Notes under the pieces: model-generated
What the model was told of the DNA's origin: nothing
What the model saw: only the letters and a program-made list of their open reading frames with translations
The model's database searches: none
Assembly (NCBI GenBank): GCA_040751795.1
Contig: JBFMHR010000002.1
Coordinates: 320,001 to 384,000, forward strand
Direction: 5' to 3'
From: Thermoplasmatota archaeon
Lineage (GTDB): Archaea; Thermoplasmatota; Thermoplasmata; UBA10834
Length of the DNA stretch: 64,000 bases
In this document: positions 41,073 to 44,166 of the stretch, in pieces
How positions within the stretch are numbered: the stretch's first letter is position 1
Layout: the number at the start of each line of letters is the position of its first letter
Position numbers and translations under genes: made by a program

Positions 41073-42176
41073 TCACGCGACCTTGAGCAGCCTCTTCCTC
41101 CTGTACCCGGTCACGACCTTCACGGTGCCCCTCAGCTCCGCGTCCAGGGCGGGGTCGCCGGTGTCCACCCTGAGGAGGGGGGTGCCGCGCAGCTTCGAAG
41201 GGCTCGCCACGACGACTATGTTCGCCCTCCCGACCTTCCGCACGACCCTGGGGGATATCTGCTGGTTCCCCCTCCCGAGGAAGAACCCCTGGGCGCCGAT
41301 GGGCGACACCACTATCCTCGCGTCCGCGTGCTCCTCGAGCTCCCTGAGCAGGTCGGCCTCGGTCGCGTCCGCGCGCACGCGCCCGCGGTCCCTGTAGACG
41401 TCGACCCCGAGGAGGGACTTCAGCTGCCCCATCGACCTCGCGATCCGGGCGGTGGTGCCCCCGGGCCCGACGATGTAGGTGACGCCGGGCTCCATGCAGT
41501 CGGCGATGTACTGGCCGATCTCGTCGGCCTCGTCGTCGGCGGTCCCGGAGGAGTACGACTCCTTCCCGGACTGCACGTGCTCGGCGACGTCCGGGGTGAG
41601 GGCGACGCCGAAGAGCCTCGCCTTGACCTCGCCCATCCTGAACGACTCCTCGTCGACGTCCATGACCTCCGCCTCCCTCACCGCCTTCGAGCGCGAGAAG
41701 GCCGCGAGGAGGTCGCCCAGCTCCGAGGGAGTGTTGAGGAAGACGGCGGAGTGCATCTTGACGCCAGAGGGCACGCCCAGGACCGGCATGTCCGAGCCCG
41801 CCTCCGCGAGGACGTCCCTCGCCGTCCCGTCGCCGCCGACGAAGACGACCAGGTCCGCGCCATTGGACACGAAGGCCTTCACGGCCTCGCGCGTGTCGCG
41901 CGCGGATGTGACCTCGGCGTGCCCGCACACGACTTCGTGCCCGACCCCGGCGGCCTTGAACACCTCCTCTCCCATCTCGCCCCCGCAGGTCAGGAAACGG
42001 ACTTCGCCGACCTTGCCGGGGACGGACCGGAGCGCCTCGGCCGCCCTGTCGGCCGACGTCCTGCGGGCGCCGCGTCTCAGCGCCTCGTCCAGGACGCCCT
42101 CCCCGTCGGTGCCCTTGAGGCCCACCGGTCCCCCCATCCCCGCGACCGGGTTGACCACGAAGCCCACAGTCAGCAT
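41073..42176 (-). CDS. ATP-NAD kinase family protein (AcoX-like)
   Basis: NPVAGMGG..LKGTDG, GGDGTARD, GVKMHSAVF, GRGNQQ. Confidence 0.85.
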   Translation of the reverse strand: MLTVGFVVNPVAGMGGPVGLKGTDGEGVLDEALRRGARRTSADRAAEALRSVPGKVGEVRFLTCGGEMGEEVFKAAGVGHEVVCGHAEVTSARDTREAVKAFVSNGADLVVFVGGDGTARDVLAEAGSDMPVLGVPSGVKMHSAVFLNTPSELGDLLAAFSRSKAVREAEVMDVDEESFRMGEVKARLFGVALTPDVAEHVQSGKESYSSGTADDEADEIGQYIADCMEPGVTYIVGPGGTTARIARSMGQLKSLLGVDVYRDRGRVRADATEADLLRELEEHADARIVVSPIGAQGFFLGRGNQQISPRVVRKVGRANIVVVASPSKLRGTPLLRVDTGDPALDAELRGTVKVVTGYRRKRLLKVA

Positions 42177-42258
42177 CGGGGATGTCAGGAGGTTATGGGT
42201 AGAAACGCTTTGTGCAGAGCGACGGTGCCGCTGCTGGTCAGGTCAGAAATCGCTAGAA

Positions 42259-42289
42259 GGAGGCCCTGCGGGCCTCCGTTTCGGGGTTT
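42259..42289 (-). terminator. Putative terminator of the RHH-ftsZ-like operon
   Basis: On the minus strand, AAACCCC then hairpin GGAGGCCC-GCA-GGGCCTCC followed by TTCT, just after the stop at 42296. Confidence 0.5.
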
Positions 42290-42295
42290 GCAGGC

Positions 42296-42697
42296 TCAAG
42301 ATGCGGGCTCTTCCGACGGCGGCTCGGCGAAGTCCGCGACGTCCGACATGGACTCGAATGTCCAGGCGCACAGGGGCTCCCAGGCCTCCGTCCCGTCCGA
42401 TGGTCCGGCGGCGACCATCAGGTGGACCTTGACCTGCTCCCCGTCCTCGTACCTGTCCTTCGAGATGAAGACCTTCCCTGGAAGCTGGCTGAGCCTCCTC
42501 AGCGCGCCCGAGCGCACGGGGACGGAGATCTCCCCGACCTCGGAGCTGTCCGAGAGGGTCTGGATGTCCTCGGCGCACTGCCCGAAAAGGTGGCGCAGCT
42601 GCCCCTCGAGCCGCACCATCCTCATGGTGTCCCACTCCTCGTCGTCCATGGTCGAGTAGGCCAGCCACTCCCTCATGCCCTTCACCAGGTCGGCCAA
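42296..42697 (-). CDS. Hypothetical protein, possibly a degenerate FtsZ C-terminal domain
   Basis: GAGGTGA SD before TTG. DLVKGMREW and EQVKVHLMVAAG resemble FtsZ H7 and its last strand by eye only. Confidence 0.6.
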   Translation of the reverse strand: MADLVKGMREWLAYSTMDDEEWDTMRMVRLEGQLRHLFGQCAEDIQTLSDSSEVGEISVPVRSGALRRLSQLPGKVFISKDRYEDGEQVKVHLMVAAGPSDGTEAWEPLCAWTFESMSDVADFAEPPSEEPAS

Positions 42698-42734
42698 AGC
42701 AGTTCACCTCCTCGGGACCCGCTCTCCTGCCACC

Positions 42735-43511
42735 TCAGAAGGACCCGGGGCCGAAGTTGCCCAGCATCGGGTTGAGGTCGGCGTGTATGAACTGCTCGTG
42801 CTCCTGCGGCGGCCTGACGGGCATCGGCTCCTCGAAGGCGTCCCCGTACCCGACGACGTCCTCCATGAGGGTCGACACGTACGAGCTGGTCTGGTCGCTG
42901 ACGCTCTCGACGATCTTCATGACGCTCCTGTCTATGACCTTCAGCGCCTCGGACATTGGGATGTCGTCGGCGAGGCCCACGAGCTTGTTGTTGTCCAGGA
43001 CGATCGTGAAGCTGGCGCTCTCCTTGAGCTTGGCCAGCCCGTCGGCGGCGGCCTCGGACCTGCCCTCGTGCTCGAAGGGCATGATCGGCAGCGCGAACGA
43101 GACGGCGTTCGTCTCCCTGGCGACGCTCGCGACCACCGGCGCCACGCCGGTCCCGGTCCCGCCGCCCATCCCTGCCACCACGAATATGATGTCGTAGCCC
43201 CTGATCGCCTCGCGGATGACCTCGCGCGCCTTCTCGGCACAGTGCTCCCCGACCTCGGGGTACCCTCCGGCGTCCTTGCCGAAGGCCACGTTCTTGCCTA
43301 TCAGCACCTTCCTGTGGGCGTCGACCTTCTTCAGGTGCTCCTCGTCGGTGTTGATCGCGACGGTCTCCACCCTGTTGTGCTTCCAGTACATCCCGTGCAC
43401 TATGTTCGAGCCAGCTCCGCCGCATCCCACGACCGCGATGGTCGGCTCTCCCAAGCTCACTCCAAGCGAGTTTAGTATCTCCTCGGTCCTGCTCCCTTCT
43501 TCCGCCGTCAT
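42735..43511 (-). CDS. FtsZ-family protein truncated after the GTP-binding domain
   Basis: VVGCGGAGSN, AINTD, tubulin signature AGMGGGTGTG, PFEHEG, DNNKL. No T7 loop or C-terminal domain. Confidence 0.88.
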   Translation of the reverse strand: MTAEEGSRTEEILNSLGVSLGEPTIAVVGCGGAGSNIVHGMYWKHNRVETVAINTDEEHLKKVDAHRKVLIGKNVAFGKDAGGYPEVGEHCAEKAREVIREAIRGYDIIFVVAGMGGGTGTGVAPVVASVARETNAVSFALPIMPFEHEGRSEAAADGLAKLKESASFTIVLDNNKLVGLADDIPMSEALKVIDRSVMKIVESVSDQTSSYVSTLMEDVVGYGDAFEEPMPVRPPQEHEQFIHADLNPMLGNFGPGSF

Positions 43512-43601
43512 CCTTCCTGGCCTCCGTGCGCCGCCGCGATGGAGGGGAGACCCTCGTCGAGAGTCTCCCCCACCAGTGCGTTCTCCGTCCTCTACGGGTG
43601 C

Positions 43602-43979
43602 CTATGTCTTCGGGACCACCTTGACCGCGCTCCGCTGCTGGTTCGCGTCCATCTTCAGCGTCTCCACATGCTCCGTGCGGAGGAACTGGTGGCGCGCGCA
43701 GTCGGCCAGTGCCTCGGACGTCGAGTTGTAGACGCCCTCGGCCACCAGGTGCGCGATCGTGTCCAGAACGAGCGGTGGCAGTTCCACGACGACCTCGTTC
43801 AGCTTCTTGGTCCCCTCGGCACACCCGATCTTCGCCTCAACGTACGCGCGTATCGCGGCGCGCGCAAGTTGGGACCTGTTGGAGAACTCGTTGCTAGCCG
43901 AGATGAACTCGTCTATCAGACGCAGGTCGTCCGCGTCCAACCGAAGAGTTATCCGCTCGTTCTCCAAGGGGTCGTTCAA
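43602..43979 (-). CDS. Tandem ribbon-helix-helix regulator (CdrS-like)
   Basis: ERITLRL..FSNRSQLARAAIR and a second unit VVVELP..GVYNSTSEAL. Confidence 0.8.
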   Translation of the reverse strand: MNDPLENERITLRLDADDLRLIDEFISASNEFSNRSQLARAAIRAYVEAKIGCAEGTKKLNEVVVELPPLVLDTIAHLVAEGVYNSTSEALADCARHQFLRTEHVETLKMDANQQRSAVKVVPKT

Positions 43980-44014
43980 GTGTGCATCCCATCCCGATTT
44001 TCAGACGCAGAAGG

Positions 44015-44166
44015 GACATATGTCATACGACCGTATATATAGGTATCCGAAATGTCACATTTCGTCTGATTATGTCATATCGGCCTACTGGCGGCCGTCC
44101 AACGGGGGGCGTCGGGGCGCGTCCCGGTATGACGTCCCGGCCCTGATTGACGCTGGGCGGTCATAC
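44015..44166. promoter_or_regulatory. Promoter/operator with repeated GTCATA motif
   Basis: GTCATAC 44022, GTCACAT 44054, GTCATAT 44074, inverted GTATGAC 44127, GTCATAC 44160. TATATATA lies at ~44034-44041. Confidence 0.6.

Follow-up and report, generated by a model that had tools for sequence, protein, structure and literature searches.

Can an archaeal FtsZ be divided between two genes? The question is raised by a locus in a 64,000-nucleotide (nt) stretch of DNA from a Thermoplasmatota archaeon (contig JBFMHR010000002.1, positions 320,001 to 384,000; this whole 64-kb stretch is the window, and positions below are counted within it). Here a gene for an FtsZ homologue that consists of the GTPase domain alone, called half-FtsZ in what follows, lies between a gene for a ribbon-helix-helix (RHH) protein and a short open reading frame (ORF), ORF133. 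The initial annotation took half-FtsZ and ORF133 for a naturally split FtsZ, with ORF133 as a degenerate C-terminal domain acting in trans. As it had described, the three genes are co-oriented on the minus strand, and head to tail they are:

43602-43979, minus strand: tandem RHH gene, 125 amino acids (aa), two RHH repeats

42735-43511, minus strand: half-FtsZ gene, 258 aa, GTPase domain only

42296-42697, minus strand: ORF133, 133 aa, acidic orphan, 37 nt 3' of half-FtsZ

The analysis argues that this is not a split FtsZ. Very probably an old half-FtsZ module was joined late by an orphan gene, a statement that concerns structure and evolution only and not mechanism.

The GTP-site motifs of half-FtsZ, which had been claimed to be intact, are all found in the 258-aa protein (GCGGAGSN, AINTD, GMGGGTGTG and PFEHEG), and the GTP-contact residues of the nucleotide pocket are invariant over 22 members of its family. 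The protein matches PF00091 (Tubulin/FtsZ GTPase domain) alone in Pfam, over residues 25-181 with E 9.3e-39; FtsZ_C (PF12327) has no match on it, and its alignment to the TIGR00065 model (ftsZ, 353 positions) is confined to positions 17-204, with a score of 199.4 bits that is below the cut-off of 295.2. The AlphaFold2 (AF2) model has a mean predicted local distance difference test score (pLDDT) of 77.3, with most of the GTPase domain above 87. In order, the protein comprises H0, the GTPase domain, H7 together with a degenerate T7/H8 remnant, and a tail (residues 225-258) that is disordered in the model, with a pLDDT below 50; H7 is modelled as a single 39-residue helix (residues 186-224) with many hydrophobic positions. 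The top Foldseek match of the model is M. jannaschii FtsZ (E 3e-20), S. aureus FtsZ also being found at about 3e-20, and the alignments extend over 188-209 columns, only the N-terminal part of FtsZ chains that are about 305-335 residues long. Comparison of a half-FtsZ profile with a full-length FtsZ profile by hhalign gives a probability of 100% over 205 columns (22-226), and in this profile alignment an S-x-L-x-x-D motif stands opposite the N-x-D-x-x-D of the FtsZ T7 loop. The earlier description of the region past H7 is thus correct in that the C-domain and NxDxxD are absent, but the protein does not simply diverge there, since the T7/H8 remnant with its SxLxxD is conserved in the half-FtsZ family. 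The ratio of nonsynonymous to synonymous substitution rates (dN/dS) is about 0.11. Half-FtsZ is a real, selected gene whose product lacks two of the three T7 residues and the whole C-domain.

The two domains of FtsZ fold independently, and the isolated N-domain binds GTP without hydrolysing it; polymerisation is thought to need both domains, the GTP pocket being provided by one subunit and the T7 loop by the next. If ORF133 were to supply the T7 loop and bottom face in trans, one FtsZ would be rebuilt from two proteins. The arrangement of the genes suits this idea: the genes are neighbours on one strand, separated by 37 nt, a ribosome-binding site of its own precedes ORF133, which is under purifying selection, and the pair is kept in 10 of the 10 genomes of the genus that have ORF133. 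The ORF133 protein, in contrast, gives no sign of an FtsZ C-domain. When a profile of 17 ORF133 relatives was aligned by hhalign with one built from 16 full-length FtsZ proteins of the class, the probability was 0.24%, over 8 columns, whereas half-FtsZ, as the positive control, gave the result described above. The likenesses that the initial annotation had seen in ORF133, to the H7-T7-H8 region at its start and to the last strands of the FtsZ C-domain further on, are consequently not above chance, and no conserved copy of NxDxxD is present in the ORF133 alignment. A six-frame search of the whole genome for FtsZ_C returned seven matches, all in the seven full-length tubulin-family genes and none at the half-FtsZ/ORF133 locus.

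Structure prediction leads to the same answer. The AF2 model of ORF133 (mean pLDDT 79.4, predicted template-modelling score 0.69) has the topology H-H-E-E-E-E-H, that is, a pair of helices at the N-terminus, then four long strands that run antiparallel, and a short helix at the C-terminus. The strands and helices of the FtsZ C-domain alternate in beta-alpha order, so the order of elements differs. Searching the Protein Data Bank (PDB) with the model by Foldseek gave nothing at E<=0.001 (best E 0.03); VIA-align against 48,161 chains gave top Z scores of 5.0 (the pseudopilin EpsI) and 4.8 (Pur-alpha); and the ESM Atlas gave no feature match, with TM scores of at most 0.57. All these values lie in the range that such tools call common. 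No FtsZ or tubulin chain appears among the matches listed in these searches, an absence that is by itself no proof of a different fold. (A complex prediction for half-FtsZ plus ORF133 scored 0.00 in two runs, which were made without controls; the score has no bearing on binding in either direction.) Because there is neither a sequence nor a fold signal of FtsZ-C, and because the other genera of the order keep the truncated FtsZ but have ORF133 in none of 37 genomes, we reject a split FtsZ; the chance that ORF133 is a trans-acting C-domain is at best very slight, and that the two proteins together make up one FtsZ is just as improbable.

The truncated gene is in fact far older than its present neighbour. 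The 120 protein clusters most similar to half-FtsZ are 62-93% identical to it, and all are GTPase domains alone of 252-288 aa. At E<=1e-60, half-FtsZ occurs in all 15 genomes of the family, in both genomes of the sister family and in one further family, and was not found in the other 26 families. More divergent relatives occur in those families as well: an RHH gene followed by an FtsZ-like ORF of 258-300 aa is seen in 13 of 14 loci of other families, the 14th locus ending at a contig end. All 30 orthologous loci inspected encode short forms of about 254-300 aa, so that the same truncation point recurs throughout the class, a recurrence that had been proposed as a check, and the full-length FtsZ that would have spoken for recent loss was found at none of them. 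This argues that the truncation is neither recent decay nor an assembly error; a pseudogene or misassembly is likewise excluded by the recurring length in the best 120 clusters together with the dN/dS of half-FtsZ, and the earlier view that the gene is not decaying holds. Matches to the RHH protein are present in 119 of 151 genomes of the class at E<=1e-5, a tally that includes one unpublished genome (G116) and probably also counts matches to a paralogous RHH protein. The RHH plus half-FtsZ operon is old and class-wide in Thermoplasmata-type archaea. Of the three-gene order that the initial annotation proposed to look for in related Thermoplasmatota, then, the first two genes recur, but ORF133 does not recur beyond its genus.

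ORF133 itself is a real, fast-evolving protein. It starts with TTG, 7-8 nt 3' of the Shine-Dalgarno-like sequence GAGGAGGTGA, and its GC content at third codon positions (0.925) falls within that of its neighbours (0.87-0.96); both its own Shine-Dalgarno sequence and its host-like codons had been noted before. Its dN/dS, determined within two subclades of the genus, is 0.13-0.35, so that the dN/dS check proposed for the locus points to purifying selection on all three genes (about 0.10 for the RHH protein). Between the subclades it retains about 27% identity, versus 77-78% for half-FtsZ. A profile search of 49 genomes of the order found ORF133 in the host and in 10 of 11 other genomes of the genus, the sole genome without a match being 55% complete, and in none of the 37 from the other five genera. 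A search with the single protein found it in 0 of 29 genomes outside the genus, and tblastn in 15 half-FtsZ/NAD-kinase-like loci of sister genera gave nothing better than E 0.8. The protein belongs to no Pfam or NCBIfam family; in public protein collections its family forms 26 clusters at 90% identity, and a profile search of 1.84 billion proteins returned 3 true representatives at 50% identity among 5 matches, the other two (long proteins of eukaryote type, a protein kinase and a protein with C2 repeats) being judged spurious.

The site of ORF133 is defined by the next gene downstream and by a hairpin past its stop codon:

41073-42176, minus strand: NAD-kinase-like gene, Pfam NAD_kinase and NAD_kinase_C; conserved downstream neighbour

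about 42251-42277 (approximate coordinates), minus strand: 8-bp GC hairpin GGAGGCCC / GGGCCUCC, then UUCUAGCGAUUUCUG, 3' of the ORF133 stop

The intergenic gaps are 90 nt between the RHH gene and half-FtsZ, 37 nt between half-FtsZ and ORF133, and 119 nt between ORF133 and the NAD-kinase-like gene. Outside the genus the NAD-kinase-like gene starts 99-165 bp past the half-FtsZ stop (7 loci read in gene orientation). This gene is the conserved neighbour 3' of half-FtsZ in the family and in one distant family (locus L043), which argues that the order RHH, half-FtsZ, NAD-kinase-like predates ORF133. ORF133 is therefore a later addition in one genus only, inserted between half-FtsZ and the NAD-kinase-like gene. 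As for the terminator hairpin that had been proposed here, the 8-bp GC hairpin exists and is part of the minimum-free-energy fold, but it is not more stable than shuffled sequences (z -0.48), and the terminator scan made no call.

What, then, would ORF133 do beside half-FtsZ? It may be an unrelated passenger in the spacer, perhaps a small nucleic-acid- or protein-binding factor. Its restriction to one genus, with three true representatives in all those proteins, and the mere 99-165 bp that sister genera have at the site fit a passenger, as do its weak likenesses to PUR-alpha/PC4-type (Whirly-like) folds and to pseudopilins of the type II secretion system (GspI), which share an alpha plus four-strand arrangement (Z 4-5). 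These fold matches all lie within the chance range, however, the tight, operon-like spacing and stable position are not what a passenger would lead one to expect, and an isoelectric point of 4.4 counts against binding of nucleic acid. We give the passenger an even chance. The other candidate is a non-homologous, genus-only partner that tunes half-FtsZ, for example through the exposed face of H7 or the tail peptide. Lineage-specific adaptors are often small and fast-evolving, and ORF133 is small, acidic and faster-evolving than its neighbours. It is on the same strand 37 nt away and is preceded by a Shine-Dalgarno-like sequence and by no obvious promoter, and in each of the 10 genomes of the genus in which it occurs it adjoins half-FtsZ, a position that has stayed fixed despite the 27% identity between subclades. 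In addition, an RNA-library contig of 1488 nt from a relative (about 90% alike) bridges the two genes, spanning 42406-43853 from ORF133 into the RHH gene, and near-identical contigs cover 43519-43667 and 43752-44003; such contigs record presence in RNA libraries and are no proof of transcription or of a single transcript, and the gaps and depth figures of these libraries carry no information on expression. On the other side, half-FtsZ does without ORF133 in every other genus, the half-FtsZ proteins of the genus differ from those of sister genera at 9 scattered fixed positions that do not cluster into a candidate interface, and no family or fold hints at a function. A partner is thus an appreciable possibility that falls short of an even one.

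Insight into the origin of half-FtsZ comes from the other tubulin-superfamily genes of the host genome. They are unusually numerous: the host has eight, and five further genomes of the class have 6-7 apiece; among them are three FtsZ1-like subgroups, a tandem pair adjoining SecE and a group of about 310 aa that is very divergent. One of the full-length genes has a setting much like that of half-FtsZ:

C23:43012-44470 (L109:1318-1632 and L109:174-1229, both on the minus strand of L109): second module, a 104-aa tandem RHH gene directly 5' of a 351-aa FtsZ gene

The 351-aa protein, encoded at C23:43012-44067, is full-length and has both Pfam domains, and the second and third best matches of the CdrS model in the genome lie just 5' of its gene. 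The 104-aa and 125-aa RHH proteins align over both repeats with 28% identity (E 4e-8). This second module is conserved in the five other genomes examined. Orthologues of the 104-aa RHH protein are encoded 5' of all five full-length members of the group and of one 317-aa relative, and orthologues of the 125-aa protein are encoded 5' of all short forms; neither type was found in the FtsZ1-like loci examined. On C23 the tandem FtsZ pair is followed by SecE, and a context of translation-machinery genes is given as the ftsZ1 neighbourhood in the part of Pende et al. 2021 (PMC8178401) available to us.

A maximum-likelihood tree of the GTPase domain (48 rows, rooted on E. coli FtsZ, eight long-branch rows left out) unites the short forms (21 rows) with the full-length proteins linked to an RHH gene (5 rows) in one clade (support 100/99.6), within which the short forms alone form a clade (100/99); 21 FtsZ1-like, SecE-linked rows form a separate clade. 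With this grouping, the half-FtsZ operon looks like a truncated duplicate of a cdrS-ftsZ2-type operon. The simplest reading of these sequences would be that a whole unit of tandem RHH plus FtsZ2-like gene was duplicated and that the C-domain was lost from one copy early in the history of the class.

How could an FtsZ without a C-domain be of use to a cell that has full-length paralogues? In the mechanism that we propose, half-FtsZ would bind GTP, and its nucleotide face would meet the T7 loop of a subunit of full-length FtsZ. Since it has no T7 loop or bottom face of its own, it could not extend the filament: the next subunit would not be recruited, and the filament would be capped, shortened or marked at its end. 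The tail would tether half-FtsZ to SepF or a similar anchor, and the RHH protein would probably set the level of half-FtsZ through TATGACA repeats around its TATA box. Judged from the anatomy of the protein, an end-capping or length-limiting role on FtsZ filaments is a tentative proposal, to which we assign somewhat less than an even probability. It corresponds to the second option in the initial annotation, a capper or regulator of filaments, and is the best guess at a mechanism.

The tail deserves attention in its own right. Its end peptide is conserved (HADLNPMLGNFGPGSF; family pattern HADLNPM..FGPG.F), and in other families the short forms end in GFIGLR, GIIGYR and similar peptides that recall the DIDFVR- and GLDFIK-type ends of full-length paralogues. 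The available part of Pende et al. 2021 (PMC8178401) takes such ends of full-length FtsZ proteins to be where SepF binds, around a central GID motif. The host genome encodes SepF at C1:117777-117998, and the tail may tether half-FtsZ to it or to a similar anchor. The same observations could be accommodated differently, with half-FtsZ acting away from filaments, either as a GTP-dependent switch or as a homodimer (the long H7 being one possible route) or as a sequesterer of SepF by way of the tail. The 39-residue H7 helix with its many hydrophobic positions would suit a homodimer, and the conserved end peptide, its resemblance in other families to the ends of full-length paralogues and the presence of SepF would suit a sequesterer. 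What argues in the other direction is that all motifs of the GTP pocket and the top face are conserved much as in FtsZ, which fits continued contact with an FtsZ partner that donates a T7 loop, and that each of the six genomes examined has 6-8 tubulin-family genes. A switch, homodimer or sequesterer appears to us somewhat unlikely.

The preferred capping mechanism includes control by the RHH protein. Its gene is directly upstream of a short FtsZ gene in every locus inspected, and the 125-aa tandem RHH protein is likely the transcriptional regulator of the operon. Pfam finds RHH_8 in two stretches of it and RHH_1. The earlier designation as a CdrS-like regulator is right as regards an RHH gene upstream, but its match to the CdrS family is too weak for a CdrS equivalog: the score against the CdrS model NF058555 is 27.5 bits, with a cut-off of 100, and the protein is a tandem of two repeats. 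The elements that may serve in the control of the operon are:

44020-44079, minus strand: promoter region of the RHH gene, half-sites around the TATA box

43983-43995, minus strand: 13-nt leader motif GGGATGGGATGCA, abutting the RHH start codon on its 5' side

43544-43570, minus strand: hairpin between the RHH and half-FtsZ cistrons, a 13-bp stem in the 90-nt spacer

Three TATGACA/TGTGACA half-sites flank the TATA box CTATATATAC (about 44034-44043) 5' of the RHH gene. The 8-base half-site motif has three matches in the window, all within 44020-44079; the trio has identical spacing in 11 of 11 loci of the genus and is partly retained in other genera, and in distant families a TATGAC-N4-6-GTCATA palindrome takes its place. 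It is plausible that these repeats around the TATA box are the operator of the RHH protein, a putative assignment made from the DNA sequence.

The 13-nt leader motif GGGATGGGATGCA has 10 sites in the genome at no more than one mismatch, versus none for the reversed control, and its copy upstream of the RHH gene is conserved across the family. The other copies in the host genome are at:

C1:242070, C51:15265, C1:188962, C1:164993, C12:14315

C23:80419, C34:240672, C12:391769, C1:42960

Genes 3' of the copies include those for SMC, a HerA-like ATPase, an FtsZ1-like paralogue and an Na/H exchanger, as well as the RHH plus half-FtsZ operon. The motif is usually 35-60 nt past a TATA-like box and just 5' of a start codon, and closely upstream of several copies there is a GACA-N-TGTC palindrome. 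The motif may be a candidate cis-element of a regulon of division and segregation genes. (Two copies, C34:240672-240684 on the (-) strand and C12:391769-391781 on the (+) strand, run on into identical further bases, ACTCTAAC.ACT, and have no sizeable ORF 3' of them; they could be the marks of a small RNA or a repeated element. The C34 copy is about 100 nt downstream of the best CdrS-like RHH match of the genome, at C34:240782-240913.)

The spacer between the RHH gene and half-FtsZ folds with -44.7 kcal/mol (z -2.59; 1 of 200 shuffles is equally stable), and related spacers show inverted repeats at the corresponding position. RNAalifold, applied to a MAFFT alignment of 15 of these spacers, gave a weak consensus of -6.58 kcal/mol without compensatory pairs. 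The hairpin in this spacer could fix how much of each protein is made relative to the other.

Taken together, these proposals would describe a half-FtsZ that caps filament ends, an autoregulating tandem RHH protein that sets the dose of half-FtsZ, a 13-nt motif regulon that includes SMC, the HerA-like ATPase and the FtsZ1-like gene, and an ORF133 that was recruited as a modulator. That all four parts are correct jointly is improbable. Several points weigh against the reading given here. GTP binding, hetero-association, capping and binding of the RHH protein to the repeats are each read from anatomy, and the RNA-library contigs carry the limit stated above. A true functional partner would equally fit what is seen of ORF133, whose position is conserved, whose spacing is short and which has a ribosome-binding site of its own. 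In an earlier tree of 55 rows the deep forks were not resolved, and one row (L100), labelled short by its length, fell outside the short clade; the 48-row tree has a single long-branched bacterial outgroup as its root, and its eight omitted rows were dropped beforehand. Finally, the 351-aa group is identified as FtsZ2 by the synteny reported in papers; named references played no part in this.

With ORF133 shown not to be the missing half, an appealing but mistaken split-gene story falls away, and attention shifts to the origin of the module by duplication of an RHH-FtsZ2 unit and to a possible cis-element common to division and segregation genes. A half-FtsZ that is under class-wide purifying selection, with its own regulator and with five or six full-length paralogues beside it, suggests a built-in means of capping or tuning division filaments. 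(Within its class the host is probably a non-methanogen, since methyl-coenzyme M reductase alpha, PF02249, was not found in its genome, which is 92.8% complete.) In the literature we met no archaeal FtsZ described as lacking the C-domain; supplementary tables, which were outside the search, could list such genes. The half-FtsZ operon is thus an apparently unpublished, conserved truncated variant of the RHH-FtsZ2 module.

Among known systems, the closest is the cdrS-ftsZ2 operon, which the available parts of Darnell et al. 2020 (PMC7439475) and Liao et al. 2021 (PMC8406309) place in Halobacteria and other Euryarchaeota; the corresponding part of Pende et al. 2021 (PMC8178401) likewise has ftsZ2 adjoining a parD-type (RHH) gene. 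As far as these sections describe it, that operon resembles the present one in having an RHH gene directly 5' of a co-oriented FtsZ-family gene. The operon described here differs in its 125-aa double-repeat RHH protein with a sub-cut-off CdrS score (27.5 bits versus 100), in an FtsZ that is without the C-domain and two of the three T7 residues, in a 90-nt gap that holds a hairpin, and in the presence of a separate module of tandem RHH plus full-length FtsZ in the same genome.

Compared with canonical FtsZ (TIGR00065; M. jannaschii 1FSZ/2VAP and S. aureus), the N-domain and H7 of half-FtsZ are 37-42% identical and superimpose with a root-mean-square deviation of 1.1-2.9 A. The nucleotide-binding motifs are common to both, whereas half-FtsZ represents about 60% of the fold, has no FtsZ_C, has SxLxxD at the T7 position and scores below the model cut-off. 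MciZ and SulA are small inhibitors or cappers of FtsZ filaments that bind FtsZ and are unrelated to it, and the MciZ-FtsZ entry 4U39 is among the Foldseek matches of half-FtsZ. The likeness to these proteins lies in the proposed function only, in which one filament end would be blocked and polymer length limited; they differ in that the proposed capper here would be an FtsZ paralogue without a bottom face.

The FtsZ-like families FtsZl1 and FtsZl2 provide the last comparison. In the portion of Makarova and Koonin 2010 available to us (PMC2875224), FtsZl1 is described as having no T6-H7, as containing a coiled coil and as sitting with vWA-domain genes, and FtsZl2 as having a 300-aa alpha/beta C-region. 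On that description they share with half-FtsZ the occurrence of a divergent FtsZ-superfamily protein beside ordinary FtsZ, and FtsZl1, like half-FtsZ, is without a recognisable FtsZ C-domain. In contrast to both, half-FtsZ keeps T6-H7, closely resembles true FtsZ in sequence and adjoins an RHH gene.

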